From positions 39,680,001 through 39,744,000 of the forward strand of contig NC_059430.1 in NCBI RefSeq assembly GCF_021028975.2: 64,000 bases of DNA, written 5' to 3'. Below, piece by piece: positions 10,073 to 62,709 of this stretch. Origin of the DNA: Sphaerodactylus townsendi (lineage: Eukaryota). Both the position numbers and the translations under genes were made by a program. Below the pieces are notes generated by a model. That model was not told the DNA's origin. It did no database searches and saw only the letters and a list, made by a program, of their open reading frames with translations. Numbering within the stretch: the first letter of the stretch is position 1; each line of letters opens with the position of its first letter.

Positions 10073-10260
10073 ATGAAATTATACAAATGGAATAATGGAA
10101 TGATGTTCAGTGAATTATGTAGATATTCCATTGTTCCCTAGAGGGGAATCAATCCAAATCTTTAAGGTAGTTGACACAGACACTGTATGAAGCACATGAG
10201 CAGGGCAAGGAGAGAGATGCAGTCTTCTTAAAGGAGAGGAACCCAATGACCTGTTTCCAA

Positions 10261-17696: not shown

Positions 17697-18173
<477 letters not shown>

Positions 18174-19134
18174 TAAATATCTTGCAGAGCAAATGGATTG
18201 CTCTGAGTGACTGTGAAAAAAAACTTTTTTCACCTTTCTTTCTGCAGTTCTTATTGTCAGCTCTTTCTGGCTGTCCTCTATCACGCTGTCTGTGTCTTTT
18301 CTCTCCTGTTTCGATTCCAAAGATTTCAGAATCTGTTTACATGCTTTTCTGTTCTTTTCTTGTATGGCAGATTTGGATTGGAGAACTCCTTTGTTCAGCT
18401 ATTACATCAGCATTTATTTATATCCCACTTTCCTCCTTAGTACATGATTCTCTCCGCTCTATTTTTGCACAATGACAACCATGTGAGGGAGACCAGGCTG
18501 AGAGTTTGTGAGAGGACCATGGTCAAGCTTACACGGTAGATTTGGGGATTTGAACCCAGGTTACCCAAAGTCCTAGTCCACCTCTCTGTCCACTATGCCA
18601 CACTGTCTCTCCTTAGTACCTTTGTGAAAGGACCATCCTTTAGTGAGCTCTTCATAATGGACTTATGAGTTAGCACCATACTAACTCCTGCATATTTTAT
18701 CCTGGATGAAACTTTAATAATGAAAGTGACCCGCCCAGGCTTGAGGTACCTGCAAGGAGAGGAAGACAAATTTAACCCAGAAGGAGTTCCATTGCTGTCA
18801 AAAAGATCTTTCCCTTTCCCACCCTCCCAAGAATTCTTCTGGCTGCACCCAGGTTTTAAATATCTTCAGTGACAGGCAGACTGACATAGCTTGTAGAGAA
18901 GGCTCATTGTTTACCTTCTGGAGTAGAGCTTCTGCTTCCAGTTTTTGTTTCCACACCCCCGATTTATGAATACATATTGTATGCCATGTCTGCTACATCA
19001 ACATGTTCTAGCAGGACCTTGAATAATGATGCAGACTCCAGCTAAGTGTCTCTTTGCATCTCCTTATTCACAGAGTTGCTGTGACTTTTATAGACCTATA
19101 ATGCTTAGCTTGTTACTTTTCTCCTCCCGGATAG

Positions 19135-19941
<807 letters not shown>

Positions 19942-27059: not shown

Positions 27060-27612
27060 GCCTCATTTTAAGGCCCTTTGCGGCTTGGGGCCCTCATACT
27101 TGCGGGACAATCTTACCCCATATGTCCCGAATAGGCCGTTGCGCTCCTTATCAGCGGAGCTGCTGGAAGTCCCCGGTCCTTCAGTGATGCGCTGGCCTCT
27201 CCCCGGGCCAGGGCCTTTACAGCCCTGGCCCCTGCCTGGTGGAACGCTCTCCCACCAGCTGTTCGGGCCCTGCGGGACCTTGGTGAGTTCCGCAGGGCCT
27301 GTAAAACTGAGCTGTTCCGCCAGGCTTTTGGAGAGGCTGGCCGCGGATTCGCTACCCCCTGGTGAGGCCCCTGCTGTATGTTGTAATCTTTGGCAATGCC
27401 TCATATTGGTTCCATCTCTTGGCAGTGCCGCCCCTCCTGGCCTTGGGCCCGGGCACCACCCATATGGGATTTAAGCTGCTTTTTGTATGCTGCTATTGAT
27501 TTTAAGGGTTGTAATTATGTTTTAATTGTTGTTAGATATTACGTGTTGTAAACCGCCTAGAGCCCTTCGGGGATGAGGCGGTCTACGAAATCTAAATAAA
27601 TAAATAAATAAT
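27060..27612 (+). mobile_element. L2-clade LINE 3' fragment
   Basis: ORF2 C-terminal-like GPSYLRDNLTPYVPNRPLRS; 3' stem-loop ccgcc..gagccc..gggatgaggcgg; (TAAA)n tail. Confidence 0.75.
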
Positions 27613-27624
27613 AATAACAACAAC

Positions 27625-28603
27625 TACATCTGGAAGACTAAAAAAAGAAATAGAAGGATTAATTCTCGCTGCTCAAGAACAAGCAATTAGAGCAAATGCA
27701 ATAGAAACAAAAATCGTTAAAACATCTAACAATGCCAAATGCAGATTGTGTACTGAATTGGATGAAACTGTGGATCACATACTCAGCTCATGCAAGAAGA
27801 TCGCGCAGTCTGATTATAAATTGCGGCATAATTCAGTTGCCAAAATGATTCATTGGAATTTATGTAAAAATTATGGTTTTCCCACACCCAAGAACTGGTG
27901 GGAACATAACACCGAAAAAGTGATCGAAAATCAGCAAGCCAAAATATTACGGGACTTTAGAATTCAAACAGATAAAGTACTGGCGCACAACACACCAGAC
28001 ATTACCATCATCGAGAACAATAGACTGGATTATTGACGTTGCAATACCCAATGGCATCCGGGTCGAAGAAAAACAACTAGAAAAAATTACAAAATATCAA
28101 GATTTAAAAATTGAACTGCAGCCAGAGGTGGGATCCAACCAGTTCTCACCACTTCTCTAGAAGTGGTTACTAATTTTTCCTGAGTGCCGAGAAAGGGTTA
28201 CTAAAGCAACCTCCGTGCCCAATAGGGACTGGAGGTGCGTGTGTGCGGCGACGCCACTGTTTGAATCCCACCACTGACTGCAGCGTCTATGGCAGAAACC
28301 AGCAGCAGTGATCCCAGAGGTGATCGGCGCACTGGGTGCTGTCCCAAAATCCCTGGGACAGTACTTGCAACAACTTAACATCAATAAAATCACTGTCTGC
28401 CAAATGCAGAAAGCTGCTCTACTCGGCTCTGCAAACAGTTTACGCCGATACATCACGTCCTCCTAAGTTCCAGGGTGGAACTCGAAGTGGATAGAAGGCC
28501 AACACCAACCAGTGATCTGGCGGTTGTGATACAATGTGTTTGTTGTTTTTGTCAATAATAATAATAGTAATAATAGTAATAATAATGATAATAATAATAA
28601 TAA
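27625..28603 (+). mobile_element. R4/Dong-type LINE 3' fragment (REL endonuclease), interrupted by a hAT MITE
   Basis: EGLILAAQEQAIR, CCHC finger CRLC...HILSSC, RHNSVAK, PDITII...DVAIP...KYQDL; flanked by (TAA)n-type repeats. Confidence 0.85.
28123..28276. mobile_element. hAT MITE nested in the R4/Dong LINE
   Basis: TIRs CAG.GGTGGGAT / ATCCCACCACTG; perfect 8-bp TSD ACTGCAGC. Confidence 0.85.
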
Positions 28604-31751: not shown

Positions 31752-32080
31752 CAGTGATGGTGAACCTTTTAGAGACCGAGTGCCAGGGGCGGGGCAAGGG
31801 GAAACTCTGTCTGGGGCACACATGCGCCCCTGCCAGGCCCCCGTCTGCCCCTGCCCTGCCCTAGAACGTCCCTGGAACACTCCAAAACACCCCTGTTACA
31901 CCCCTGGAATGCCCTTGCCATGCCCTGCAGGGGCACATACCTAGTGCATTGTACCTAGTGCACCCCTCACCCCCTTGGCGTATGCCACTGAGTGGCCAAA
32001 CTAGGGTGACAGCATGCGTGCCCACAAAGAGGGCTCTGAGTGCCACCTCTGGCACACGTGCCATAGGTTCGCCACCACTG
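31752..32080. mobile_element. hAT MITE
   Basis: TIRs CAGTGATGGTGAACCT / AGGTTCGCCACCACTG; perfect TSD GACTATTC. Confidence 0.85.
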
Positions 32081-34764: not shown

Positions 34765-35240
34765 TTAAGCCAATGGTAGTGCGCTTTGCACGTGAACACG
34801 GCCATGTCAGCCAATCAAACTTTTACTATCCACGTGCTCACTCGAGCTGAGGAATCCACCTCAGCAACTGGCTTTCAACCCCCACCAGTCTAAAGTAAAC
34901 CAATAGGAAGCCAACCGTCAGTTTCTGCGTCACGTGGTCTGACCTTAATTGAGACAAGACGCGGAGCGATTTCGAGATCGGTGTATAAAATAGTGCCTCA
35001 AATCTTTCCACCGACCCCTAACTTGGGCTAAATAACTGCGGTCTGGAAGGGTTTATAAAACGAGTATTTGATTTTCTGCGTCTTGGAGAGGGTCTTGATG
35101 GAGAATTTGGTCTTTTGAACGACTCTTTTTTAAATTCTAGACAGTTGGCGGAAGGCTGTTGGTGAATCCTAGAAAAGCGCGAGATGACGGATCTCTTTTA
35201 GTATAAAAGCGAAAAACGCGGGTGCCGCGTCCTCATTGTT
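34765..35240 (+). promoter_or_regulatory. ATF4: ATF4 proximal promoter
   Basis: CCAAT boxes at 34770, 34811 and 34900; CACGTG E-boxes at 34789, 34831 and 34931 (the last in TGCGTCACGTGG); TATAAAA at 35202-35208 with an Inr-like CTCATT about 30 nt downstream; CpG-rich. Confidence 0.75.
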
Positions 35241-35333
35241 AGACTGTGGAGACAAAGTGGAAGGTCCAGTATTGCGGTAGCCTGCGAAAGGCGCGGCTCT
35301 GACCAGCTAGGAACAACTTCCGCAGCCGCCACC

Positions 35334-35354
35334 ATGGCCGTGCAGGGGTGGTAG
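35334..35354 (+). CDS. ATF4 uORF1 (MAVQGW*)
   Basis: Perfect Kozak GCCGCCACCATGG followed by GCC GTG CAG GGG TGG TAG; same position as the reinitiation-promoting uORF1 of vertebrate ATF4. Confidence 0.85.
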   Translation: MAVQGW

Positions 35355-35431
35355 TGCACGCGGCGGCATCGGCCATTGCAGAGGCGCAGCAACAGCGGCC
35401 GCGGCCTCGGCACCTCCCGGCACCTGCAACC

Positions 35432-36896
35432 ATGGCGTGAGTATTGGGCGAGGGGCCGGGGACACGATACGGATTGGAGGCTGGGTCGCTTTATTCCCGG
35501 GACCTGGAAGAGGGGGGGACCCATATGAAACAAATAGTTGAGGAACAGAAGGGTTTGGGGGGGGGGGGGGCTGTTTGGATGTCTGTCTCCCATATAAGGG
35601 GTGGGATGGGAGAAGGGTGGGTGGTATTTTCAGCTTGGGAGTGGATCGCTAGTCTCTCAATGGGAAGATCTTGTAGGAAAGGAAGGGAGAAGAGAAGGGG
35701 GAATGGAGTCCCTGGGAGAGCTGCCCGGGTGGAGTATGTGGGAGAGACTATATTCGTTGAAAATGAGCGCCATTTAATGAGCTTTGGGGCTCCGTGGGGT
35801 CATTAGAGAGCCGTTAACGCCTATAAGAATCCCCTTGGGAGGCAGCCTTTCTGACGCAAGTAGAGTCAAAGTCTCTGCACAAGGAGGCACAGACTGCCAC
35901 GGAGGCAAACATGGTGGGGATCCTGATTTCTGTCTCGATGGGGTTAATTAGTCTCTGGAGTGTGGGGGTTTGTCTGTCATGCCTTTGTAGAAAGAATATC
36001 CGTTCCTCGATTGCTGATTGTGAATACGTATATACATATGGGAGTTACAGTACAGTAAACCTTTATTTGTATGATGATGACAGAAAAAGGGAAAAACTTT
36101 GTTATACAACAATGGGTATATTAATAAGAGCATAAAATGCATAAAATAATAAACATAGATTACATTAAAAACGTTACTAGTGATTCTGTATTGTTATCTG
36201 GTTGTGAATTCAAACTATTTGCCACCTCTTAATGTTTCTTTTGGGGTGGACTGCAGACTGCCAGACTGCAGAATACCAAGGCGAGTCTTGAGTAACCTTG
36301 GAGAAAACGTGGCAGGACACAAAATGGCGGCTTATTTATAGGGTGGGGACCGGCTCAGCAGGCTGATCCTGAAATGGCTGCAGCTGTCGTTGACGCCAGT
36401 GAATGCGTGAATCAGACCAGACAGGGCGGTGGGTGGAGCGGTAACTGGTTTTGACCAAATATGGTCATAAGGAACTTTAGTAGACTGCCACAAAGAAGGA
36501 TATGCGTGACAAATCCTAGTTGGCGCTGTTGGACATTTTGATGGCATTCAAAAGATTTCTGAATTTGAAGAGGATACAATAGTAGTTCAAAAGAAGCAGG
36601 ACTGCAGTAGTGTCATGCTGTTTAGTAAAATGTGAAATATAAAGTAATTCCCACAGTAGAGATGCCTCGTTTAAATCCAGTGGTCATATTTTTAATGACA
36701 AACCTCTTGTTTCCATTTTTTCAGGTTTTTCAAGGCACCACACAGCAGCTTTGCTGTAATCAAGAAAGAGACCATCTACGTGTCTATTCTTTTTGACCAC
36801 AGAGTACTAAAGCTTGGCAAAAATGAGCCTCTCAAACACAGAGATGATGCTGGGGGACTTTTTGTCCCCCTTCAACCAGCCGTGTTTGGTGGCTGA
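35432..36896 (+). CDS. ATF4 uORF2 (58 aa, spliced 35432-35436 + 36725-36896; overlaps the ATF4 start out of frame)
   Basis: accATGGC|gtgagt donor and ttttcag| acceptor. Spliced product is MAFFKAPHSSFAVIKKETIYVSILFDHRVLKLGKNEPLKHRDDAGGLFVPLQPAVFGG*. The TGA at 36894-36896 lies past the ATF4 AUG at 36823. Confidence 0.88.
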
Positions 36897-37042
36897 TGAA
36901 GAAAGTCTGGGACTCCTAGATGACTACCTGGAGGTGGCCAAGAACCTCGGTTCGCATGGGTTCTCCAGCAACAAGGCTAAAGTGGGATACTCCAATTGGC
37001 TGACTGTGGATAGTTTGAACGATGCCACAGACAACAGCCAGG
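36823..37042 (+). CDS. ATF4: ATF4 coding exon 1
   Basis: MSLSNTEMMLGDFLSPFNQPCLVADEESLGLLDDYLEVAK..., the typical ATF4 N-terminus; donor G|gtaaga at 37043. Confidence 0.95.
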
Positions 37043-37284
37043 GTAAGATAGAGATGTAATCACAAATTATGAGTTGTGGTAATACAGGGTGGCAGTTTCT
37101 TAGGAAAAAACTTAGGAGTGGCAACATTAACTATCAAGATTAGAATTGATATGATTAGCTGTAAATGCTCAAGACTATATCAAGCATCTACAAGGAGGGG
37201 AAAGGCAATTAAGAATCAAAATAGTGTTGTTTTTTATTAGACATAGAAAACTGAATTTTATTGGCTATTTTTCTTCCTTGACAG

Positions 37285-38132
37285 AGGATGCCTTCTCTGG
37301 CATGGATTGGATGGTGGAGAAGATGGATCTGAAAGAGTTTGACTTTGATACACTGTTAAGTATTGATGACCTTGAAGCCACCGTCTTCCCAGATGAACTC
37401 ACAGCCACGTTGGAAGATACGTGTGAACCATTTGACCCTTCCATCCCAGAAAGTCCCAACAAAGAAACTCCACTGACAGAAGAACCAGTTATACAATCCC
37501 CCACAACCCCCCCTGGGGCAGACCAGGTGGCTCCACTAACTCCTTTGTTGCCATTTCCACTTTCCCCAGAGTCACTGATTTCCCCTGCAGACCATTCTTT
37601 TAGCTTAGAACTAGGCAGTGAAGTGGATGTTCTTGAAGGAGACAGGAAAACTGAAGCCCAAATTGTTCTAGTGGTAATTCCCAAGTGTGAGAAAGAGGAA
37701 GAAGTCCATTCTGACAATGACAGTGGCATAGGCATGAGCCCATCTTACTTGGGGACACCCCAGCAAAGTCCTACAACTTCCATTAGTTCCCTCAGTGATG
37801 GCCAGTCAGTTATAGCTTTGCATAACAGTTATGTGCGTACCAAGCCTTATGATATTCCTGCAGAAAAGGTAGTGTCCCCAAAGGTGAAGGGAGAAAAACG
37901 AATAGATAAGAAACTGAAGAAGATGGAGCAAAATAAAACAGCAGCTACACGCTATCGGCAGAAAAAAAGAGCAGAGCAGGAAGCTTTATCAGGAGAGTGC
38001 AGTGAACTGGAACAGAAGAATGAGACCCTGAGGAAGAAAGCAGATTCCTTAAGTAAAGAAATTCAGTATTTGAAAGATCTGATGGAAGAGGTCCGTAAGG
38101 CCAAGAATAAAAAAGTTAAAGTCCCAGAATAA
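37285..38132 (+). CDS. ATF4: ATF4 coding exon 2 (bZIP transcription factor)
   Basis: EDAFSGMDWMVEKMDL, degron DSGIGMS, basic region KKLKKMEQNKTAATRYRQKKR and leucine zipper ...LSKEIQYLKDLMEEV. Total is 220+848=1068 nt = 355 aa. Confidence 0.97.
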
Positions 38133-38203
38133 TGGTAGTCAAGGAATAGATGTTACATGCATGTATATAAGAGCTTAGCACAAACAGCTGTGTAATACTG
38201 CCT

Positions 38204-38209
38204 AATAAA
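38204..38209 (+). terminator. ATF4 polyadenylation signal
   Basis: AATAAA about 70 nt after the stop, followed by GT-rich tgtttgtggttgg. Confidence 0.75.
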
Positions 38210-39722
38210 TTATTTTCTAGTACATGTTTGTGGTTGGAGTGAATGTTTCTCAGACATTTAACACACACATTTAACTAGTTTGAGTTCCCTGAAACTTACA
38301 AAATCAAACAATTATGGAACAAGGTAAACATTTATGGGTATGAAACTGAAAGTTTAGTGGGCATTTTTCCTTTCAAAGACTGATCAGCATGCAACATTAG
38401 AGGCTGGAACTGAAGAGCTACAAACTTCTCTTATCATAGCAGTCTAGTGACTTGTCTAGATAGTTTTCATATTTAGCATACAACTGACAATTCTGAGACT
38501 AATGTGCCTGCAGTGCTAATTTTAATTTTCCTGTAATTGCGCGCCTGAAGGAAACAGCCACATGTTTGTGCGTAACTAACAAAAGTACTGAAGGGAAGTT
38601 ATGAGCAGTGCAGTCTTAGTTTGGACAGCAGGTGTAGGCCGATTTATTTTGGCAAAACTTTACAGCTGGGCAGTGTATTCTGATGCTGGAAAATCTGTTG
38701 CTCTGTTTTCAACATAGACATTTAGATACTCTCAAAACCAAGGGTTAAAATCAAACTGATGGTTGAATTCTTAACATGTACACATAACATCTTGAAATGG
38801 GAGGGTGAGTGTTAATTTTGCTTCAAACAACCCCTTGCTGCAAATTACTTGGCCCAATTAAGGTACTCGCTAGACCTGACAGGTGGTGATGGTGGTAGGC
38901 TGCAGGCAAGGCAAGCAAAAGCACTCTTCCTCAGGTATCCCACTACCATAAACAAGGCCAATAGGCATGGACATGGTTTCGATCATTAATTTTGCCCAAC
39001 TATGCTGTGCCCAAGAGAATGGATAGTTTCATATAATCCTTGGCAAGAAACCCAATTAGATTGAATCTTGGTTACCAATTGGCACAGTTGTTGAAATCGA
39101 TTCCTTGGCAACGGATTGTAAAGCAGCATGACTTGTAGTTTGCGACACTTGTCATTTAATAGATAAAACGTAGTTACCATATTCCAAGTCTGTTGCATGA
39201 ATGGTTTACACAGTTGAACTAAGTTGTGAATGTAGGCAAAATCTTATTGGTTTGCCCTTCTAAAATTGCCTACCCCAGACATCTGCTTAAATACACTATT
39301 ATGGTTCACCTTCTAGGTACCTGAATAGTATATAATTTTCCTTGGTATTTTAGCTTCACAACAACCCTGTGATGTGGCCAAGTCCCAGAAAGAAATAGTC
39401 AAAAGGATACCCAGAGACCTTCATAGAAGGATTTAAACGTGGATCTTTCTGTTAACAGTCTAAAGCGGGTGTCCCAACATGCAGCCCATTGAGAGGGCTT
39501 ATCAGGCCCACAAACCAGCTGGCAGCAACCACTGGATGACAAAAACATCCAACCAGTATGACTTACCAAGGCCTAGCTGCTTGCTGCTCTTCTTTATCAG
39601 CAGTCACGCTATGAAAGTCAGCTTCAAGGGACTCTGGGGAAATCCTTGCAGGTTTTACTTGCAATAGCAGAATCTGAATACCCAATTAGTATTTGGAACC
39701 GGAAAAACAAGGAATACTGATT

Positions 39723-42383: not shown

Positions 42384-42530
42384 TCACTTTGGACTAACAG
42401 CTCCAGCAAAATATTCCTTCTCGAATTTCTGGAAATCTTCATCAGTGAAGACTGTGCCCTCCGGCTTCTTCTTCTTTGCCTCCTCCTCTGGGCGGTCTCT
42501 AGCTTTCCTGCCTCTATTTTGGGCCAGAAC
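42384..42530 (-). CDS. RPS19BP1: RPS19BP1 (AROS) coding exon 4
   Basis: [14 protein letters not shown]...[23 protein letters not shown]..., matching the AROS C-terminal motif; acceptor AG at 42532-42531. Confidence 0.95.
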
Positions 42531-43211
42531 CTTCAGACAATACAAAAGGAAATGAGTTGTATTCTTTGCTAACACAGCACAAATGGTTATGGCGGTTAAA
42601 CATCAATCAAACTTGTTCCAGACCAAAGAAACATTTGATCACAAAATGTGACAGCATAGTTTAGAGTCTGTTTGGATTCTGTCTGATGAAGCAGGACCCT
42701 GTGTACTCACTGCTTTTTAGAGAAACTTGCATCAAAAGGTCAGATCTACATTCCAGCATTCCGGGATTTGTGAGAGTTTTTAGTTAGATGGTCAAGCACA
42801 GGAGTCTGCAACCTGCAGCTCTCCAGATGTTCATGGACTACAATTCCCATCAGCCCCTGCCACCATGGCCAATTGGTCTAGCAGCAGAAGACAATCCTGT
42901 CAGCTAGAAGCTGAGGCTCATCCGGACTAATTTTCCCTCTACTCTTTCTGCTGGTATTTTACATTGGTATGGCCAAGCAGATGTAGGCAATATGCTGGTT
43001 TTTGTAATTTGGAATCTCTTTTTTGTAAGCAGCTTTGGGTTCTCCCAAGGAGAAAAGTGGCTTTAAAATGCTTTAATAAAAACTCAGCTTGGGTGAACAA
43101 GGGTCTTGAAGGCAGGGAGAAGGTTATGGGTGAGTGCAACATGACAAGGAAGGAAAAAGAAAATTAGAAAGGAAGGCTACGGCATACAAAGAGGTAGAGT
43201 ATAAGGCTCAC

Positions 43212-43309
43212 CTTCTGAGTGACAGAACTGTCTGTAACAAACTGACTGCTCAGCATGTACTGCAGGTTTTCCTGCAAATGGTTAACAGCCTGGCGTTTCT
43301 GATACTCCT
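43212..43309 (-). CDS. RPS19BP1: RPS19BP1 (AROS) coding exon 3
   Basis: (E)EYQKRQAVNHLQENLQYMLSSQFVTDSSVTQK; cttcccag| and |gtgagc; 98 nt. Confidence 0.92.
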
Positions 43310-43629
43310 CTGGGAAGAAGTAAGAAAATAATTGTAAGCAGGTTTGCAAAGAGGACAAAAGACACAGGTAGGTTTAGAAACATTCTGACTGGCTGGAATG
43401 CAATATGACTTGCCACAAAGCCTGATCTCCCCCCCCCCCCCCCCGCCTTTGTACCAGAGATTTCATGGACACTTCACCCCCCCTAAAAATCAGACCTCTG
43501 CAATTACCAAACTTGAACAATATATAGAAAAATTATACTGGTACACCAAATTGCATAAAAAGTCACTTTATTTAAAACTTGAAAATATCATGCATTCCTG
43601 AGAGTCTTATATGTGCAGCTAAAGTGGAT

Positions 43630-43990
43630 AAGAAGAACTTTCCCTCTCTTCCTCATAATACTAGAACTTAAGGCCATCCAGTGAAGTTGATGGCCAACAG
43701 AATCAGACTAGATAAGAGGAAGTACTCCTTTACTTAATGAGAAATTCAATCATGGAATTCACTGCCAGTGAACATAGTGATAGCCACAGGCACAGATGGT
43801 TTTAAAAGGAGATTAGACAGACTCATGGAGGAGTGGTTCATCAATGGCTACTAGCCATGTTGACTAATGAGAAACCCCTCCACATTCACAGCTAGCAGGT
43901 CCCTGAATATTAGAAGGCAGAATTAGGGCTTCTATGATACTGGACTAGAGGAACCACTGGTCTGATCCAGTAGGCCTCTTCTGAAGTCTA
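43630..43990 (+). mobile_element. CR1 LINE 3' end
   Basis: Typical CR1 ORF2 C-terminal DNA (actagaac..ggccatcca.tgaag; tggaattcactgcca; ttagacagactcatggagga) and 3' UTR ggtctgatccag. Confidence 0.65.
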
Positions 43991-45013
43991 ATCTATATTA
44001 CATGTTTGTATTCTAAGCATATAAGCCTCATTTCTGAAACATGTTGAGTTTGTGCCTGAGTGCCTATAGTCTCATGACTATACTGTACTTTCAACATGCA
44101 TATTTTTATGTATTTATTTTTTATTATTGAGTTTTATATACCGCCCTACCCCTGAAGGATTGATGCCACTTGCAGCTTTGAATGGGAAAATATATTGTTA
44201 ATTGTCACATGCTATAGAAAAGGTGCACAACTCAAAACAGTTACATGGACCAGAATTGATCTTGATTAAAAATAAGTCGAACCATACTAGTACATACTAT
44301 TAGACCCTGCTCCATGAGTCACAGGGTAAGAAATGTTGGAGACTTGGCAACACTAAAATAAGATTGTTTTTAGCAACACAGTTTTTAGCAATGATATACT
44401 CATTAGAGAAACAGGGTCAGAAAGATATTGACACCAAGCACTCCTCAAGCTTTATATACAGCAGTTGTACCCAACCAGGAAATCGGGCTTCCAACACAAG
44501 ATGAGTGTCAAGGATTGTAGATTCATTATCCCTGTTTGCACCCCTAGACAAGGAGTACAGCATTCATGCATAGAATCTTTGCACAGCTGTGCTCTTTCCA
44601 GTGCCATGAAACCTAGTCCAGTCCTTTATCTAAGGCTTTGGATAACCTCATCCCTGAACATACCTGGCAGCAGCACTCCTCTTCTTCATTGCTGTTGTGA
44701 CTGTGTTCATTCTCTTTGGGCAAGTTCTCCCCTCCCCACCCCCCCGGCTTTACTTGTGGATGTACGGAGGATGAAGTAAGTCTGATTTGGGAGAGTGGAG
44801 CAGATACCTGCTGCAGACCAGGAAGTGTGACTAAGGGATAAACAGGATGCGGTGGAGACTTGCTGCCCATCTCTCATGGTACCACTTCATCAGGTGCCAC
44901 TTGGCTTCCCCCTTTCTTTCTTCCCTCTCTATTCCATCGCCAACATTGGCAGTCTCCTCCTTGCGGCCTCTCATCATGGGAGGCAAAGTGTATCATAATC
45001 ACTGCCTCCCAGC

Positions 45014-47258
45014 CACTGGTGTAATGCCCATTGGGCAAGGTGGGCAGCTGCCCAGGGCATCACCTTGTGGGGGGCATCAAAATGCTGGGTTCGTTTTTGG
45101 GTATTTTTAGTTGTTTTCCATTTTTGGCCTGCAGGGGGCGCAGTTTTTGTTAGCACAGAGGAATCCAGCCTTCAGATGTTCAGGAACTATTCTATCAGTT
45201 CTACCAGCATGGCCAATTGGCCATGCTGACAGAGGCTGATGGGAATTGCAGTTCCTGAACATCTGGAGAGCCGCAGGTTCCCTACCCCTGGAGCGGCACC
45301 AGAATTTCAGCGTATCATCAGGAGACTGTCCTTATGCTACCCTCCAAGTTTGGTGAGGTTTGGTTCAGGGGGTCCAAAGTTATGGACTCCCAAAGGGGGT
45401 GCCCCTATCCCCCATTGTTTCCAATGGGAGCTAATAGGAGATGCGGTCTACAGTTTTGAGGGTCCATAACTTTGGCCCCCCTGAACCAAACTGCACCAAA
45501 CCTGGGGGGTATCATTAGGGCAGTCTCCTGATGAGACCCTTAAATTTTTGAGACTGTGCCTTTAGAAATGTGCCCCCCCAGCCTGCAACCCCCATTGACA
45601 TCAATGCAGAAAACTCAATGCAGAACAAAGATTCTTGGGCAAATTTTGGAATGTTCTTGCAGGGAGGGCATTCTTGGACGTATCAGCACCAAAATTTCAG
45701 GGCATCATCTGGAGACTGTCATGATGGCACCCCCAAGGTTTGGTGCAGTTTGGTTCAGGGGGTCCAAAGTCATGGACCCTCAAAAGGGTAGCCCCCATCT
45801 CCTTAGCAAAGAATGGGGGATGAGGCACCCCCTTTGAGGGTCCATAACTTTGGACCACCTAAACCAAACTGCATCAAACTTGGGGGGGTCCCATCAGGAC
45901 AGTTTCCAGATGATACCCTGACATTTTGGTGCTGATACATCCAAAAATGCGCCCCCTTCAGGAATATCCCAGAAATTTGCCCAAGAATCTTTGTTCTGCA
46001 TTGAGTTTTCTGTATTGCTGTCAATGGGGGTTGCAGGCTGGGGGGGGGGGGCACATTTCTGAAGGCACAGTCTCAAAACTTTCAGGGTTTCATCAGGAGA
46101 CTGCCCTGATGATACCCCCCAGGTTTGGTGCAGTTTGGTTCAGGGGCCCCCTCAAAACTGTAGCCCCCATCTCCTATTAGCTCCCATTGCAAGCCTTTAT
46201 TGGCATAGACAACAGTACAACAATAATAAAAACAGATTAAAAAACATATACAATACAGGAAATAAATGTTAAGTGAAAGGAAAACTACTGGCATTTAGTA
46301 ATTTCCAGGAGAAAGTCTGCCACTATCAAACAGAGAGAAGGATCAGGATTGTCCAACAAGTAGTGTAATCTAATTAAAACGAGGAGATCTGGTAAATGTA
46401 AAGGAGTAAGATTCACATACTTGGATCTGATTTCCTTGAATCTGACAGTGTAGTAATTGGTGGGCCAGAGATTCAACTGAGCCATCATTACACAGGCACA
46501 ATCTTTTAGCCTTTTCTTGCTAATTAAATCTGCCATGTAACAAGGCAGAAGGCATAACATTAAACCTGGCGAGCATTATGGCTCTCCTTTGAGCACGGTT
46601 TATTAAGCAATACAGGTAGTGTGCCAAGTGGCCCCGTTCAAATGAGAGAGAAAAATACAGGGGGGGAGCATGTTTTCTTGGCTGCGGTGATTAGGGTAGA
46701 GAACTCTCTATCCAATAGTTGACCTTTTAATTTTCTATAAGCTTCTGAATAGGACAAAGGGCAAAGTGAATCCACTGACAGTCCAATAGAGGCCATTTTT
46801 TCTTCAATTATGGAAAACCAGGGGTTGGAATGGGTGTCAGAGAGCAGCCAGTGGACCAGGGAATTACAGTCCGAGAGAAAATGAATTTGCAGCCAGAATC
46901 TAAAAGCCCTCAGCCAAGCGGCTGATTCCAAGGAGTTTTGACCTAACTCCAGACAAAGGGCTGCCTAGGGCACGCAATTTGGGGATTAATTAGCTCCCAT
47001 TGGAAACAATGGGGGATGGGGCACCCCCCTTTGGGAGTCCAAGTCCATAACTTTGGACTCCTTGAACCAAACCTCACCAAACTTGGGGGGTAGCATAAGG
47101 ACAGTCTCCTGATGATACACTGAAATTTTGATGCTGATATGTCTAAAAATACACCAATGTCCTGGTGCAAAAATTTTTTGGTTGTGGTGGAGTGGCCGCC
47201 CATGGGGCATCCAACTCAGGTTTTGCCCAGGGCTACAGTTTGCCTCATTACGCCCCTG
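45014..47258. mobile_element. hAT non-autonomous element with palindromic interior and nested insertions (RPS19BP1 intron 2)
   Basis: Perfect 8-bp TSD CTCCCAGC (45006-45013 and 47259-47266); TIRs CACTGGTGTAATG / CATTACGCCCCTG. Confidence 0.8.
46190..46988 (-). mobile_element. 5'-truncated LINE nested in the hAT element
   Basis: 14-bp TSD ATTAGCTCCCATTG (46176-46189 and 46989-47002); ORF2-like fragments 46285-46560 and 46638-46931; AATAAA near the 3' end. Confidence 0.75.
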
Positions 47259-48129
47259 CTCCCAGCCCTTTAAATAAAGTTATGGTCTTTTGCTCAAAAC
47301 TTCTGGACCCCATAAGATTTCGAGCTCTTATAAGAACTTGGGAACCAGAAGGGCTGCTTTGGCAACCATCCTAGGCACCCGTGTATTTTGACAGCTTGCC
47401 TGAGAGTTGCTGTCTGTCTCTTGTGGTGCTGTTTCACTGGTGCCCAGTTTTCTTGATTAGGGTCTATCACGGTCATGAAGGCCAGTGCTGTCTGTTGAGC
47501 CAGGAGAGACTGTTATGGGGGCTATAGACCACTCAACACATGTTAGTGGGCCACAGATTATCTACTCTTAGTGAGCTACACAGTTCAGTGTGGTAAGTAA
47601 CATTAGGTGAGCGGTTCTTTTCGATGGACCAACTACCACCATTTGTGAGACAAAATGGAAAACTTGTTCTGTATGCAGAGAGCAAAGTTTAGCCATGTGA
47701 ATAATTTTAATTCCTTCAGACAGCCAAAGAACTGAAGAGAAAGCCTTCAGAAACCCTTTAATGTACTAAATTGATGTTCCTACGCAATACTGTAATATCT
47801 ATGTAGGCATGCAGCTCAGATCGTTAAGCAGATACCAAGAAATGAAGTATAAGCTTGCAAATGTGCATGCATATCTATAAGAGGTGCTAATATGAAACTC
47901 AGAGCTTTAAACCAATCCAAGCATCCCAAAAGGCATTTTGCAACTGAGGAACCCAACATATCGAATAGCTACACAGAATGATACAGCCTCTTAGAGACCG
48001 TTGGTTAAGAATAGTTTGAACTTTCATAGGAAGTAGCCTGTGAAAAACTCTTAAGAAAATAGAGTAAATTCCCAGGGGGAACTTCCCCCACCATGATTCT
48101 ACTAGCTCCTTTAGATTAGAGGCTCTTAC

Positions 48130-48270
48130 CTAATGCAGATCTAGTAACTTTGCCTTTGACTGTAGCTTTATCTCTTTTGCGGCTTGAGACGATCTTTCTT
48201 TTCTTCCTCCTCAGCAACTGTTTCTTGAGCCGAGTTGGGGTCGCTGTTGGTTTGGGCCGGGAGGCGGCCG
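48130..48270 (-). CDS. RPS19BP1: RPS19BP1 (AROS) coding exon 2
   Basis: (A)AASRPKPTATPTRLKKQLLRRKKRKIVSSRKRDKATVKGKVTRSAL; ctag| and |gtaaga; 141 nt, phase 1/1. Confidence 0.88.
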
Positions 48271-48445
48271 CTAGCTTAACAAAAAGGGGGAACGAAAAAG
48301 ACCGCTAAGACTAGAATCCTCTGCATATGGATTAGTTCTATGGGATAAAATGGGACTTCTGCTTAAGCATGCAATTGATTCGCACCGTAATTAAGCTTAA
48401 CAGATGCGAACGGAGAAAGTTCTCATTTCAACTCTCATTTATTAC

Positions 48446-48497
48446 CTGTCGATTCCTCCAGCAACTTCAAACCCTTCCTTAGTAAAGAAGCCGACAT
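48446..48497 (-). CDS. RPS19BP1: RPS19BP1 (AROS) coding exon 1
   Basis: MSASLLRKGLKLLEEST (compare AROS MSAALLRRGLELL); donor G|gtaat; 52 nt. Total is 438 nt = 145 aa. Confidence 0.92.
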
Positions 48498-52765: not shown

Positions 52766-55700
52766 GAATGTGAATGTGAGGAAGAGCTTGAATAAGATCC
52801 CAAAGAGACTGCTTTTTTATCTATCTATCGATCGACCGACCGACCGACCGACGAACGGATGGGATTTCTATACCGCCCAATCCCCAAAGGGCTCTGCTTT
52901 ATCCGTGCTTATCTTTTAACCTGTTATACTTTAACCTGTTATACTTTAAAAAGAAAATTTGCTTCAGGCTCATTTTCATTTTCTATTAAATTTGTATCAC
53001 AACTTTACTTTTTTAGTTGGATAAAGACTAGTCTGTTTGGGTCACAAAGCAGTCACTAGAAGCCCTTGGTCCTGAACTGCCCAATCTCTCTAAAAGGGAT
53101 TTCTGTGGAATTGTTTTGCTGCTCTATATTCCTTTCTTATGCAGTGGCTTTACTTTTAGAAATAAGGCAGGAGACTCTTCCATTTGTCAGAGAGTAACAG
53201 GTAGTTAGCCTTTTAGCACTGGCTAAATATTACTTAAGTGGTTTTTAAGGTTTTGTTTTGTTTTTAGTCTTTTGGAATGCTCGTCAGGAATTTCATTGCT
53301 TTCATTGATTAGTAGGACAACTGATGTGTCTCAGAACTTTTTACTGTTTGTTGTTTAGCCAGTATTATAAAATTTTTACTGCTAGCATAAATAATTTTAA
53401 TTCATGTTTCCTTTTCCATTCCTATCTATAAAAGTTGGCAATAATTTTGTTAAAAATTCTGCATCTACTTGAAAAGTAAAATAAACACAAAAAAGCAAGG
53501 AAGGCCATCTGCTAGAAATGCTTTGGGTATAGGCTAACTTATTTTAGGGCATGGACCTCTAAGTAAGCTATCCAGGTGTCTTCCAGTTTTAATATTAGTG
53601 ATTGTCTTTAAATATACAATGTATTTAGAGCCAGTCTACTCTAAGAGAAGATGAGCAGAGGTGGTTAACACAGCAATGATAGGGTACCTATCACTGGGAA
53701 ATACCTGGAGATTTTAGGGGTGAAATCTGGGGAAGATAGGATTTCAGGAGGGGAGGGGCATCAGCAGGGTGTGATGAAATACAGTTCACTCTTCAAAGTG
53801 GCCAGTTTTTCCAGGGGAATTGAACTCTGTCATCTGGAGACAAATTGTAAAAGCGGGAGATACCAAGGTATCAAGTGAGTTGGCAACCCTAAGAAATGAA
53901 GATATACATTGTGCTGGCACTGTATTTTTTTGGTCAGCTTGATATTCACCCAGTCATTATTGGAGAAGTGTGTTGTCCAGTTAGTGGGTTAGCCCTGCAC
54001 TCAGAATACCTTCCTGCCTGTTGCATTTTTATCCTGCCCTTTCTATGAAGAACTAAGGGCAGCAAACATGATTCTCCTTGTGGTAAACCTGCCCTGGGTC
54101 TGTGCATTCTTGCATGCATGTGCATGTAAACCATGTTTCCTCTTTGCTGTGCTGCCACCTCAAGTTAAAATCCAGCCTCCCCCATAACCAGTGTCTTGGG
54201 GAAACCTGGTAATGTCTGCCTCTGAGAAAGTACAAAGGGCAGAGCTTTCAACCCATCCCATGTAAGCAAGTGTAAGTGATCTACATGTCATGGGGAGGAG
54301 TTTGAATCATAGTCTGCTTTCTTAAACAATAAAATACGTTATTGCTATAAATTCAGCTAGAGCACAGACATAGAAAATAGCCATCAAGTATGATGGTTAC
54401 AGAACTAATGAAAAGAATGTAAAACATAAGTCTAAGCTAACTTAACAATGCAGAACAGTTACCTCTGACAACCTCCAACACAAATAGAATAGGTACAGTG
54501 TAATGACTATACAAAAAGGGAAGGGACCACTGTACCCTGCTGCCAATAATTATAACAAACCTAAAGTGCAATTTTTAATACAGTGTAAAAGTGAATTGGT
54601 GCAAATAGGAGCAAAACTGTACATACTGTGTTAAAATAAGCAATGTCATCCTAATAACAATTAGTCTTATCATGTAACAATAACCAGAAAAGATGTTAAC
54701 ATACAATCACACAATTAAGGACCACACACAGACTGTCCTTATTGTTTCTGTATGGATTTTACAGAAGCACAAAAATGGAAATAAGACAACAGTCAATGGT
54801 AATATTCCAAAAAACTTGCATGCTCTGTCATTCCTTTTTCAGGTAAACTTTGCAATGGTTCTTCAATTATCCAGTCTCCCACTTTCCAAGACCTGCAGTG
54901 TCCTCCCAGTGAAATTGACACAAATATCCTGAATGTGTAGATGTCACAGAATGCAGCCCACAGCGAGCAGCGTTTTCAGGGAAAAACCTTCCTCAGTTTA
55001 TAAGTTTGCTCAGGAAGATTAGTTACAGGATTCAAATAATGAATGGATAAGGATTTCACCCATATTCACTGATATAAATAGTTTAAAAACCAATAATAAA
55101 TACCCACATGAATAATTATAAGTTAATAAATAGAATAACCTCACATTATAAACAGAGTGATGAATTCTATTAGTAGAGCAGTCAATATTGTTTATGATAA
55201 AATTAGATTAGTAATACTCACAAATTGTGGAATGAAACTCTCTCAATTCTGTGGTGACTGAATCTCTGCCACTGTGTGCTTGAACCATGCACAAATCCAT
55301 TCAAAGACTTTTATTAGATACAGCTGTAGCCAGCTGGCTGAATCTCTCAAAGGTAAGTACAGTAATAACATTGTTACATTTGTTATATTTTCCTTTCGCC
55401 TCTCTTACAGATCCACAGGGGACCATTACAATGCCCAACATACACCAAAGAAACTCTGGTCAGTTTCACAGAAAACTGGACTGATTGTTATCCGCATTCA
55501 ATCCCCATTCTATACATGAACCAAGTTTATGAATCTGCTACGCTTCCGGCTTCAATAAATATTTAGTAATATTCACTCCTGTTTGTTGTTTTCCTTGGTG
55601 TTTCTAAAGAACACAAAACTTAAAGTCCCTATGGCTATGTTTCTGTTCAATAAAATGTTAAACTGTGGGGGCATCCATACACACGTGTGCATACTGTTCT

Positions 55701-58094
55701 GCATGTCATCTCCATGTAATTTTTTTTACAAGTGCACAAGAGAACATACATACATTGCTTAGTAGCACATGTTGAAAAATGATACAGTTGCCCTGTGTTG
55801 GTGAGAAGACTTTCTCAGATTTAGGAGACTTGGCCCACATAGGAGGAGATACCCCCAGATACCCTCCAGTCATTCTGGAGGGCACGCTTCACCCATTTGC
55901 AAACTCAACTTATGTTTTACAACTGCTATCCATCTTGACTTTCATCCCAGCAGGTGAGCAAATGGCTATCTCCCATCAGAAACCCATCTCCTGCTCTCCC
56001 AAACCTCTTGGTGCATTTTATGATTCTCTTCCCTGGGAAAATAAACTGTTGACAAGATCTCAGGAATTCGCTGAAGTGCTTCAAATCACTTTATATCTCG
56101 TAATCATAGCACTCTTCTTCACTTTGTCTTCACAACAGCACTGTGGTAGGTCACTTGGAGAGAAAGTGACTGGCCCAAGTTAAGGATCTGAATCCAGGTC
56201 TCCCGGCCTAATCCAACACTCTAGGGATTATACCACAATAGTTGTCGTTGGTTTAAGCCAGGTTTATCTCTGAGATGGGTTGGTGAGTCTGTGTTCTTTC
56301 TTAAGAAATATTTCAGACAGGATTGTTAGGGTGCCGAGAGAAAGACTGACCATGAGAAGTCCCATAGATATTATAATGTGAACTTTTGGGAGCCTTTAGA
56401 AGATGAGAGAGAATCAACTCAGTGCATGTGATTTGTAATTATAGGCTTTTGAGCAGGGGCTTCACTCCATATAGTGTCCCATGTTGCACAGCTGGAAAGC
56501 AGATGTGCTAATCTCTGTTCTGCTTTCCTTTGAAGTTGCAGGGCCTGGAAGACATTTGTGAAGTCTTTGTTAATAGCTCATGATTCCCCCACCCCCCTGT
56601 ACTCCTGTACCAAATACATTTAAAACTTTTGAAGAATATGTTTTAATAACTTAAAAAAACAATACTAATGACTAGCAATGATTAGTTTGCACATACCCAT
56701 TTTAAGTGAAAATAGAAAACCGCACAGCACCCCAGTGATTCCGGCCGTGAAAGCCTTCGACAATACGTTGAAAATAGACTGAGTTAAGCACCCCTTGTAC
56801 TGGAGCTGCAGAGCCAGAATTTGAAACATGACTTCCTTTGGAATCTGTGGGATTCCATTAGTTACAGCATTATACCCTTTTCCTAGAATAACATTGTTAT
56901 TATGTGTCAACATCCAACTCTGTCATTATTCATATTTATCTGTATTTGCCAACCTTAGGCAATTTGCTCTGCAGTTGCTCTGCCTACAAAGAGATTCAGA
57001 TCACTGCCTTACTGTTCTGCAGGCATGTGGTGGAGACACTTGACTTTTTACAAGTGACATTGCTTTGAAAAATGCTGTTTCCTCCCATTTCGTTCATGGC
57101 TGACTGGATACAAGCAAATGGGAGGCATTTCCTTTGACTTTGCTCTTAAACATATTTATCATATAATTATTTTTGAGTGTCAGAGGGACAGGAGGGGGCT
57201 ATCCCCCTTAACCCACCATCGGTTCCTATCTAATTTCTTCTCTTCAGAAATACTTATAAATAATGAAAGGCCCGGCAAGGCTTTAAGAGGCTTGCTGGGT
57301 AAACTACTAGGCCTTCCGGTTCAGCACTTTCACAATGTTTATTGTAAGTGTTTGTGGGGTGACCCATTTGTCCTTTTCTTTGCTGCATTACTTTTCTCCT
57401 TTTGGGGGCCTGCCTTGGCATAATCCATACAGAAATTCTCTTGGGCAAAAGCTCCTTTGACATGAGTGGGAGCTTTGCAAAGGAGAACTCCTTGGCAGAA
57501 CCTGGCCCTGTGTTTCCACAGCAGAGTCTGCCTGTTCAAGGCATGTCACTTTTCTACCTTCTTGGGTTTTTTTAATTTTCACTGGCTTTTAATGTTCTCT
57601 ACTTCAGAGATCCCTCCTCCTCCCCACCTGTCCAATAATAGATTTCTCAGCATAATAAATATACACTTATGATTCAGTTGTCGTATAGTGCCCATGTTTT
57701 TTTTTTGTAGGGTTTATTTATTTGAGCTTATATTTATTTATTTATTTTTTGAGCTTATATACCGCCCCATCCCCGGGGGGCTCTGGGCGGTGTTTACCTC
57801 TGTGGTGGGAATAATGAATTTTCTGGAGAAAATACTTAAAGTACTTACTTAAACTTTTCTCGGGTATCACATCTGTTGGCTATAAAAGGGGGTTAGATGG
57901 ATTCATGTAAGTTCAGTCCATCAAGGGCCACTTGCTAGGGTAACTACAGGGATCTTCCATATTCCGAGTCATTAAACCTGTGAGTACCGTTGCAAAGAGG
58001 CAACATCAGGGAAATGCTTGGCCTCTATGCCCTGTTTGTTGACCTTCCAGGACAACTGGTTGGCTGCAGTGTAAAACAGGATGATAGACTAGAA

Positions 58095-58240
58095 CCGTGG
58101 TGGCGAACCTTTGGCACTCCAGATGTTATAGACTACAATTCCCATCAGCCCCTGCCAGCATTGCCAATTGGCCATGCTGGCAGGGGCTGATGGGAATTGT
58201 AGTCCATAACATCTGGAGTGCCAAAGGTTCGCCACCACTG
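58095..58240. mobile_element. Palindromic hAT MITE nested in a CR1 3' end (~57870-58270)
   Basis: Almost perfect 146-bp palindrome; TSD GACTAGAA. Related copies lie near 217-300, 42798-42878 and 45157-45290. Confidence 0.88.
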
Positions 58241-60381
58241 GACTAGAAGGACCATTAGCCTGATTCAGCAGGGCTCTTCTTATGTTCTTATGGTGTTGAA
58301 CTTGCATCACAGAATTTAGTTGTGTGATTGTCAGAGGTGCTGCTGGATATTCTTTATGATGTTGGCAAATGGCACTCCTACCCAGCCTGCAAGCCACCGT
58401 ATAAACTTCCTTTTCAAAGTTTTTATTTTGTATATGTTGACAAATATCCTTTGAGCACTCCATCCACTGGAACCCTGATCCAGGTCATTTTTTGTTTGTT
58501 TTAAAAATCTATACAGAAGAACATAGCTACTGCCTGTCCAGGGAGGGGGCTGCCACCTATCACTTTGCAGGCTTTCCCACCTATCTTCCTTAATCAGATG
58601 GTTGCTCAAGGATCACATGATGCCCTGCAACTGGCAACCCTGCCCCAGCAAATGCCAGAACTCCCTGGAAGCCAGAAACCAGGAGAAGCTGCAGGGAACT
58701 GGCTGAATTACCTGGGCAGCAGGAACAGGCCTCAGCTGTTACCAGCACAGGCCCAACCCAGCTTCAATCAACAAATCTCAACATTTCCACAGAGTGGGGT
58801 GGGGCCAGCACAGCCCAGAACAGGCTGCACCCAGGGAGGAGGAACTAGAGCCCTGATGGGCCAATCTCGACCCAGCAGGGCTCGACAGGCAGCCTTCTAA
58901 CCACTAGAAGGCTGGAATAGGGAGTCCCAAAGGGAAAGGAATCCTTTTTGCATAAAAGGAACACAGGGGAAGAGGCCAGGGAGGAAGGAAGGAGAGAGAT
59001 TAGAAGGGTGTAAGAGTGCTGTAAACTGCTTGCCATTAATGTCTGCCTGCTGGAAACAGCTGTCCTTCAAGTGCTTCATTGCTTCATGGATAGTTCACCA
59101 GGGTGCCAGTGTACCCTGCAAGGAGACACTCACGCCATCACTTACCAGTTTTATGAATCTTTACGTGAATGATTTTGGCATCTTTGGAGGCAGCCTTTTC
59201 CCTTTCTCTCAGAATGCAATGCTTGTGTTTTGTTTTTAACAGACTGCAGCATCATGACAGTTCTCTCGCCCTGCCATTAAATGTGGATGGAAGAGTTCCT
59301 ATTATTGCTTCATGGGAACTTGTATGGGGATTGTGCAAAGGATAAAATGATGTGGCTGGGTATACCTTTTCTGGTTAGACTAGGAGGCCCCTGGGCTCCA
59401 GCTCAGCCAGTCTGATTCCAAAATGTTTGTGAACGTCTAGTGATCAGGAAAACACAGTTGGTCACCTTAAATATAGCAGAAATGGCAGACTCTCAGATCA
59501 GCTGGTAGTCTCTTCCAAAGATTGGGAGCAGCTTGGAAGACTGTCTGGTCGTATCGGATACAGAAGCAGCATAAGGGAAAGTCTGAAAGTCTGTTGAATT
59601 TCTTCCATGGTTAATTTATGATGTTTTAAACAGGGTTTTTCTATGCATTGAGTTAATATCAGAATAGTGATTTATGTTGCTCCAGCTGTAGCAGAACACA
59701 CTTAAATAATCTAACTTAGCAAATATGCAATGAATCAAACAGAAAACTTCTGTTGCACCTTAAAAACTAACACAGTTTATTCCAGCATAAGGTTAGAGCT
59801 CACTCCTTCAGATGTACAAAGTGAAAAAATCTTTTTAATGGATTTTTAGAAGGAACCTTATAGTAATGGGGGGTGGGGGGAGGCAGATAGTAGCAGACCA
59901 AGAGAAGATTCTCTTCCCCCTTTTTTAATGTGACATTTCTACCTTATCCTCCGTGACGAATGAAGTCTGACTCACAAAAGGTTAGGCTGGAATAAACTTG
60001 ATGGCCTTTAATGTGCTATGGGACTTCTGTTTGCCACAGAATAATACTGGCTACCTCTTTTAAAATATTAATCAATACAAGTGTGTACTCATTAATTTGT
60101 CTGCAGAATTGTTCCTCTGTTAAACATCTGGAAACAACTGGCTACTGCTGTTCTTTCCGTTCTTTTCTAGTTTTTTTTTTAAAGGCACCATTATAGCTTC
60201 TTGGGGCTGCTTCTTTTGAGGGAGACAATCATGAAGGCTAGGCTACCATGAGCAAGCGACTTTAGCCTGAAATGGGTACTTGTTGCCATGGCCGGCTTTC
60301 ACCACATGATGTCACTGTGAGGCAGAATTTCCATTTCAGCTGGGCTTGAATAATCTGCAGATAGAAGAGACCGGTCAAGAA

Positions 60382-60475
60382 AATCAAGTGTTGTCGGCGT
60401 GTGGTGAAGTCTGTACATTTCATGCATGAACCGATGAAACGTACAGACCTCACCACAGGCCAGCAACACTTGATT
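60382..60475 (-). ncRNA. Candidate pre-miRNA-like hairpin (unverified)
   Basis: 42-nt arms with 5 non-matching positions and a 10-nt loop; no TIR/TSD context; not recognised as a named family. Confidence 0.35.
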
Positions 60476-62709
60476 GGTTGCTTATTATGAGGACAGAACT
60501 TTATAATCTCCTGCCATGCTGTCAGGTAGGTCACCCATATTCCCATGTTGCAGACTGGGCATTTTTGCTAAGAGAGTGTGGTTTGCCCTTGGCCAAAAGG
60601 GAAATTCATAACTGAGCAAAGTTTCAAACGTTGATATCTCTGTTTCAGACAGGTCTTCCTACAGGTATTTCTAGGGTGATCAAATAGAAAGGAGGGCAAG
60701 GCTCCAGATACCTTTAATGCTTCTGCAGGAGAAGGGAATTTCAGCCTGTGCCACTTGTCATGCACAAGTGAGAAAAGCTGCACCTGTTGAACTTGCCTCT
60801 TTTCCTCAACACAGGTGCTTCATCCAGGACTGGAGCAAGGGGGAACTTCACCTGGGGCATGCGTGCGCCCTGTGCCCCTGCCACACCCCAGCCCTGGAAC
60901 GCCCCTGCCATGCCCCTGCACTGGCTTCCTCCTTTTATTTGAAAGAAAGTTTCCTTTTTAATCACTAGATTTGTCCAGTATAAAAATAGCAGTATTGAGC
61001 AATCCGTTGCACACCTCCCGTTGCCCACTGCTGTCCCAGACTCTGGTTTGCAATTCACCTGGGAGAAGGCACAGTTCCCAACATTTCCACACACCCCAAA
61101 TTATTTTTCAAAGCGGTGCTGGTGTTTAAGATGGCATTAGGGTGGTTGAAGGCATTGTGAGAGAAACTTCAGGTCTCATGCAATGGATAAGTGCCGTTAT
61201 CGCTGTCAAAATCCACCCAGAGCACCATGAAAGGGTGGGGTTTTTTGGTAGCAAGGTACAGTGGGGTAACTTGTCCCTCTGTGATTCTCTGGGAAATCCA
61301 ATATGTCTGATTTTATCAGCTGTCTGAAAAATAAAGAGTGCCACAGAAGAGAAACTACATGTACAAGCCAGATCCAGAAAATCATAGCCTCAAATCCTTA
61401 ATGTTTGGAAAGGCCCTATGGCAGCTATCCCCCTTCTGCTGCATTCTCTAGTCTAAATGGGGTGGGTGGGGAAAAAGAGTGAAGAGGCATGGTGTGTTCC
61501 TGTGGTGTTGATTGTCCCACCCTGCTGCATTGCCAGAATGAGAGCCAAGCAATTCGCCTAACTCTCTCTCCCCCCACCCTCATTAGCAAACAAATAGTGT
61601 GCAATTAGAGGGTTCCAAGACGCAGACCTAAATCCCCATTTGTATTCTGGCTCGAACACCAGCACAGAAGGGTGGCTGTCCAATTAAATGGACAAAAATG
61701 CTTGTTATGGGTCCAGCTCAGTAGGGTATGATGATATGTCTCCGTCCCGCATAACCTGCTTTTTCTAACCCAGCCAGCATTTTGCAGCCTCTCTCCCTGC
61801 CTGCCTGCCTGCCTCTCGGTTCTATTTTTTTTTTTACTCCTCTCTGCCTGAGCTTGCATTCATCCTCCTTCCTCATGTCAGTGCCTTTGTACTGCATTGT
61901 CATCTCTTTCCTCCCTGCCCCTTTCTTCTATTTCCACCCTTTACTCTTTCCTCAAAGTTCAGTCCTAGTGATTATTTTTATGGAGGGTCCTGTGTTTTTG
62001 CTCAGGAGGCATCAGGATAGACTTCCTTGCCTCTTGAAAATAACCACAATTGCCCTTCGGACACTGTGCTTCTTTCCTCTGCTTGTTGTCATTTTCATTT
62101 CTTTACTCAATGAGATCTCTTGCTGAAGGGACCCAGATTAGAGGCTATTTGGCATAAGCATGTCGTACTGAGTGTTTTGCATAGCCATACAGGTGGAATC
62201 GTGTCTCTTCTCTGGCATTTCTGTTCCTTGCTAGCAGAGAGTCCTGGGTGTGGACCTGAGAGAAATGGCCAGTTGTGGTTCTGATTGCAATGGGTTAGGT
62301 GAGAGAAGGCTAGCATGTCTTGCAAGGACGTGGACAGCCATCCAAGGGCATCTGGAATTGGGTGGGGAAGTGGCTGTACCTGTAGGCATGGCAACTGGGA
62401 ATGTGCCAGCCAGGCGTCCTATATATGGCAGGATTTTTGTATTAGCATCCTGAACATGGAGGCCACCAAAAAGTAGGGCTTTAAACATTCTGGTTGAGGT
62501 CTCTCCTTCCAGAACTGTCCAGGAGAAGATTTTTTTTGTATATATCCTGTGAAGCTCTAAAGTGTAGCAAAGTATGCCTGATTCCAGTGTGACACGACTC
62601 CCTCATTGGCATGGTCCTGTGGCATACAAAAACAAAGACAGACAATAGAATTTCAAAAATCTGCATGGATTTTCTGGCAGCGATAAATAAGCTTTTGTTG
62701 AACCTCTGT

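Follow-up and report, generated by a model that had tools for sequence, protein, structure and literature searches.

A single-copy 94-base DNA hairpin in a gecko genome, probably an inverted duplication made by template switching

The window analysed in this work, a stretch of 64,000 nucleotides, contains a real DNA hairpin of 94 bases at 60382-60475, which is probably a template-switch inverted duplication that arose once, in place, and has since drifted without function. Its parts, together with a palindrome at its centre, are as follows.

60382-60423, no strand assigned: left arm, 42 nt, gapless
60424-60433, no strand assigned: spacer, 10 nt, consisting of 2 nt and the 8-nt unit 60426-60433
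60434-60475, no strand assigned: right arm, 42 nt, gapless
60419-60430, no strand assigned: perfect 12-nt palindrome, spacer-less, at the border of left arm and loop, offering an alternative pairing register

The arms are complementary at 37 of 42 positions, with no gaps. Folding of 60372-60485 was predicted on both strands, as proposed in a preliminary description of this DNA, and gave -61.8 kcal/mol (z -8.6) on the plus strand and -64.1 kcal/mol (z -11.2) on the minus strand; 0 of 200 shuffled sequences folded as well on either strand, and the predicted hairpin is stable and unbranched on both. The predicted apical loop is 10 nt on the plus strand and 5 nt on the minus strand, where the inner pairs are weak. 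Pairing ends abruptly at 60382 and 60475, the repeat does not extend into the flanks, and no target-site duplication (TSD) was found in the sequence flanking the hairpin. The 94-nt hairpin with a 10-nt loop and unpaired flanks that had been described is thus confirmed. Scanning the whole window picked up three short-spacer inverted repeats (145-192, 58097-58238 and 60382-60475), the first of them being a GC-rich hairpin with 22-nt arms, a 4-nt loop and one mismatch that is probably part of a repeat.

Set against the right arm's reverse complement, the left arm has a different base at 60394, 60395, 60399, 60408 and 60417. At arm position 18 the difference (G.G/C.C) is a mismatch on both strands; at positions 14, 27 and 36 an A.C mismatch on the plus strand becomes a G-U pair on the minus strand, and at position 13 a G-U pair on the plus strand becomes C.A on the minus strand. 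The preliminary description had noted two such A.C conversions and had taken them as a hint of minus-strand folding. The conversion holds, with the count corrected to three plus the one reverse case, and the hint does not survive, since a bias of 3 in 4 transition differences toward minus-strand G-U, with 1 in 4 toward plus-strand G-U, is at chance level (P 0.31). Retained CpGs had also been pointed out, and 4 were observed vs 1.4 expected, a count that lies within chance (P 0.057) and lends the pre-miRNA reading no support. Every arm CpG is without a mirror CpG in the opposite arm, and two of the five arm differences (60395/60462 and 60417/60440) are transitions of the kind expected from methyl-CpG decay.

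Copy number was assessed in sequencing runs. A run search found seven runs from three organisms and two studies, none of those listed being RNA, a fact with no bearing on expression. Four of the seven were compared (X1, X2, X5 and X7; X3, X4 and X6 were left out) by placing their contigs on 58882-61881 at 80% likeness; bins 60982-61781, which had no cover in 3 of the 4 runs, were left out. Run depth is not copy number, and what can be read from these placements is contig count and continuity. In bin 60382-60481 the depth equalled that of one listed contig in X1 (18.8; record 8, 59446-60878), X2 (35.7; record 9, 58882-60878) and X5 (57.5; record 23, 59003-60920), and was 28.7 in X7 vs 30.2 for one listed contig (record 32). 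With 3 differences in 1,997 letters, X2 may derive from the very source or species of the window and is therefore not an independent comparison. The contigs covering the hairpin are 1.4-2.1 kb long and unbroken across it in all four runs, with breaks only at a repeat at about 60830-60920, which served as a control.

60825-60920, no strand assigned: GC-rich repeat, very high-copy, outside the hairpin, serving as positive control for dispersion

Contigs broke at this repeat in 4 of 4 runs, with loose ends at 60825-60889 and a summed depth of 24,048-49,152 in bin 60782-60881. Repeats 300-1400 nt from the hairpin piled up from tens to more than a thousand-fold, with control depths of 959-2,838 in 58982-59081 and 439-1,296 in 59682-59781. 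Because a single unbroken contig covers the hairpin in every run while the neighbouring repeats pile up, the hairpin is not a dispersed element at 80% likeness. Within the window it likewise occurs once. The preliminary description had set its reading against many dispersed genomic copies and had stated that the hairpin lacks a TSD, unlike the MITE hairpins elsewhere in the window; one contig per run and flanks without a TSD agree with that statement, and identity as a MITE was rejected on the same two grounds.

Several other repeats were observed in the window. A stretch related to the GC-rich repeat lies near 31899; a diverged dispersed repeat with many contigs about 85% alike occupies 58950-59125; and 59700-60050 holds a pair of oppositely oriented multi-copy fragments, separated by about 190 nt, that resemble the 3' ends of Penelope elements. 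At 45290-47150, repeat units of about 100 nt, some direct and some inverted, form a nested cluster, and reading frames at 7093-10078 (minus strand) and 27608-28033 (plus strand) look like fragments of LINE endonuclease and reverse transcriptase. A spacer-less palindromic MITE at 58087-58249, which we take to be hAT-like, has arms of 71-79 nt that are 94-97% complementary and an 8-nt flanking direct repeat, and related copies lie near 214-281, 42799-42876 and 45170-45290.

Palindromic hAT-type MITEs of the gecko genome (for example 58095-58241) resemble the hairpin in that the entire element is an inverted repeat, and differ in being dispersed and bounded by 8-nt TSDs, whereas the hairpin is single-copy and has none. 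That the hairpin is what remains of a palindromic, non-autonomous DNA transposon of ancient date, with its other copies lost or less than 80% alike and its arms kept alike by conversion, is improbable. A spacer-less palindromic origin would fit palindromic MITEs such as 58097-58238, and excerpts of PMC8794818 describe maintenance of hairpin arms by template switching. However, at 80% likeness none of the 4 runs placed an extra contig over the hairpin, even though roughly 1,500-1,600 placed records per run (1,532-1,634) were less than 90% alike. Neutral copies of a family should resemble one another about as closely as the two arms do (88%), and a copy of that likeness would hold an exact seed, if seeds are 11-19 letters long, with a probability of 0.67-0.99. 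The missing TSD argues against the transposon relic as well, as does the Pfam result that none of the 100 reading frames scanned in 55-64 kb scored above the cut-off, so that no transposase was detected there.

A template-switch inverted duplication would account for the gapless, abrupt arms, the one copy, the missing TSD and the structure of the centre. The end of the loop (60426-60433) recurs, with 1 mismatch, as the opening 8 nt of the right arm (60434-60441), and an equally good tandem copy occurred in 0.6% of 200,000 random loops (P ~0.006). This near-tandem copy, beside the 12-nt palindrome, points to a palindrome-centred copying event. Repair of breaks at the centre can give rise to such duplications. 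Under the proposed mechanism, replication would have switched template and copied 42 bases backwards in a single event in place. In one route, a pre-existing short palindrome would have stalled replication or primed the switch, with the copy restarting at the end of the left arm; in the other, a spacer-less palindrome would have formed first and acquired the 8-nt duplication later, by slippage or centre-break repair. The two routes are indistinguishable from sequence. The five arm differences would be later point mutations, two of them the methyl-CpG transitions given above. Counting against a drifting template-switch product, no indel separates the two arms.

According to PMC7999016, stability is lowest in palindromes whose spacer is short or absent. 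The comparison system is the type 3-2-1-4 template-switch repeat of the four-point model (Loytynoja and Goldman 2017, PMC5453318) and the hairpins that result from it (Monttinen, Frilander and Loytynoja 2023, PMC10710096). Such repeats share with the hairpin a single-copy, local reverse-complement copy with gapless arms, a short spacer, a size like that of a primary microRNA (pri-miRNA) and later point changes; they differ in that the arm here is 42 nt vs 28 nt in the published example (PMC5453318/PMC10710096) and in that the loop here repeats the start of the arm as an 8-nt near-tandem unit. PMC5453318 states that template switching yields inverted repeats in one step, and that an inverted-repeat outcome makes up 31% of high-confidence human-chimp events. 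By this analogy the hairpin looks like a member of the class, with every organism compared already carrying both arms and no one-arm outgroup among them.

The hairpin was present in the three organisms, two of which are referred to here as A and C. Organism C is about 3.6-3.75% diverged from the window (72 of 1,918 letters in X5 and 65 of 1,834 in X7). The hairpin bin is free of deletions in X5, and of the 72 changes in that run at least 29 lie before 59823, so that too few are left for an arm to have been replaced. Hairpin and loop would therefore be older than the split from organism C. The arms have diverged by 11.9% (95% range 4-26%; 5 of 42 positions) vs 3.75% to organism C, giving, if the hairpin is neutral, an age for the event of about 3.2 times that split (range 1.1-6.8). 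In X7 the hairpin bin was short of about 5 letters and the following bin of 6 (about 11 at 60477-60487, as deduced from bin depths), most simply through one deletion beginning just beyond the right arm and less simply through a loss within the hairpin. Sampled words were found in organism C in 9 of 22 and 8 of 22 cases, near neutral expectation (mean 0.27-0.33; P 0.23-0.44), and by this comparison the hairpin shows no excess conservation there. Organism A has 15 substitutions in 1,433 nt, and none of those listed falls in 60255-60579, which counts against neutral drift; with P 0.05 for the 261-nt query and 0.36 for the hairpin alone, the pattern is a faint hint of constraint.

Identified genes of the window are listed below.

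17697-19938, plus strand: MIEF1 (PF21297)
35200-38220, plus strand: ATF4 (bZIP domain)
42387-48495, minus strand: RPS19BP1 (AROS), the identified gene nearest to the hairpin (PF15684 on two exons)

Judged by its ATF4, which is 87% identical to the Euleptes, Gekko and Heteronotia proteins and at most 82% to those of other named squamates, the window is gecko DNA. RPS19BP1 exons matched PF15684 with E values of 6.8e-16 and 9.4e-09 (2 of 4 scanned pieces were without a family), and the gene, with a putative start codon near 48495, runs away from the hairpin. ATF4 and RPS19BP1 are convergent, with about 4 kb between them. The hairpin lies inside no identified gene, and because it is about 12 kb beyond the start of this minus-strand gene, the RPS19BP1 transcript does not include it. 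The order MIEF1, ATF4, RPS19BP1 is that reported for mouse Atf4-Rps19bp1. In mouse, excerpts of PMC12407945 place Cacna1i, with a non-coding first exon, beyond Rps19bp1, and by analogy we infer the same Rps19bp1-Cacna1i gene order in gecko. No CACNA1I exon was detected with Pfam in the 100 reading frames of at least 45 aa in 55-64 kb, where the single weak match (Mpo1-like, E 0.0057) fell below the cut-off, and seven reading frames near the hairpin matched no Pfam family. The Mpo1-like match is a minus-strand frame in 54300-55800, an AT-rich stretch in which a GTAAGT resembling a splice donor lies at 55353 and a pyrimidine tract closes with AG at 55410. The 58 nt so enclosed would make a small intron, and the features of this stretch may be due to chance.

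One further feature lies close to the hairpin.

60282-60291, plus strand: RFX half-site-like 10-mer, 91 nt before the left arm, once in the window

We take this 10-mer to be like an RFX half-site; it is off the palindromic form at 3 of 14 places, and by chance a window should contain about 0.27 copies, a figure obtained with the 10-mer moved by one base. An RFX-like motif about 100 nt away had been reported, and the motif itself is there. It was dropped as support, together with the G-U bias and the CpG retention, both of which are within chance. A cis-regulatory element, namely a CACNA1I or RPS19BP1 enhancer whose duplicated arms would double transcription-factor sites beside the half-site, is highly unlikely. 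The nearby 10-mer, a CpG o/e that is slightly raised in 60001-60500 (0.36 vs 0.28) and, faintly, the pattern in organism A would fit an enhancer, but the motif is a half-site chosen after the fact and organism C shows no excess conservation.

The preliminary description had also proposed pre-miRNA geometry, of which the stable, unbranched hairpin stands; stem length and Microprocessor motifs fit poorly. Criteria for stem, loop and motifs come from mammals and are enriched rather than obligatory. In excerpts of PMC5340965, the optimal pri-miRNA stem is 33-39 nt (about half of well-supported miRNAs have it), bulges are depleted at about 16-21 and 28-32 nt, and apical loops of 8-16 nt are enriched. 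Measured against these values, the plus-strand loop of 10 nt lies inside the enriched range and the predicted minus-strand loop of 5 nt outside it, the 42-bp stem is above the optimum (39 only if three terminal A-U pairs fray), and the mismatch at position 18 falls within the depleted zone 16-21. CNNC was found in 0 of 26 strand-register cases (13 cut registers on both strands), and basal UG and apical UGU were absent at the expected register; the sole offsets with UGU were 9-10, and the sole one with UG was 21. Canonical animal miRNA hairpins are alike in the stable unbranched stem, the high pairing and the 10-nt loop of the plus strand, and differ in stem length, Microprocessor motifs, family match and identified host transcript.

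The preliminary description did not recognise the hairpin as a named miRNA, and Rfam gave 0 matches at the gathering score (best 36.6 bits vs 84), and mir-3688, MIR831, mir-466 and mir-4928, all far below their cut-offs, were rejected as generic hairpin matches. The core 8-mer was searched exactly on both strands, a search that an orthologue changed in those letters escapes and for which positive controls worked. It was absent from the Anolis miRDeep2 supplement (352 novel and 261 known rows; PMC4858913), the Pogona supplement (1,296 rows; PMC7576210) and the garter-snake set (203 precursors; PMC6110522), and all 10 of its places in a 20-species heart set (PMC7931589) were in let-7j and mir-499 only. 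A gecko miRNA catalogue with usable sequences was not found in the literature; MirGeneDB 2.1 covers Gekko japonicus, according to excerpts of PMC8728216.

It is unlikely that the same inverted duplication became a gecko-lineage miRNA gene, yielding an RNA of about 22 nt from either strand through Drosha and Dicer. Its putative host would be an unannotated transcript: for CACNA1I, one with a long first intron or an antisense RNA arising upstream; for RPS19BP1, a divergent RNA started at the promoter. Such a gene should yield reads of about 22 nt from both the 5p and the 3p side, their 5' ends homogeneous and offset by 2 nt. The stability and unbranched form of the hairpin, the size of its plus-strand loop, its retention in three organisms and the mouse position and first exon of Cacna1i would favour a miRNA gene, as would published precedents: a 44-nt stem in MIR579 (PMC5340965) and at least 18 MirGeneDB human miRNAs made by template switches (PMC10710096). 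The long stem with its mismatch at 18, the missing motifs and Rfam family, the core 8-mer results from the reptile lists and the heart set, and the want of an identified host gene argue against it, as does the finding in PMC10710096 that, among 111 miRNA loci made by template switches in human, 12 are intergenic. A more specific version, a gecko-specific miRNA upstream of CACNA1I born in two steps, with a spacer-less template-switch palindrome followed by a duplication of 8 nt at the centre to open the 10-nt loop required by Drosha, is very unlikely.

An inverted duplication that drifts would be ordinary: thousands of such hairpins have been reported from the primate lineage alone (PMC10710096), and the same paper counts 6,054 suitable miRNA-size template-switch hairpins in human-lineage genic regions, of which 57 (0.9%) are annotated miRNAs. 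If small-RNA reads made the hairpin a true miRNA, its importance would be modest, as a reptile case of de novo miRNA birth by template switching in which the loop-making step is still legible.
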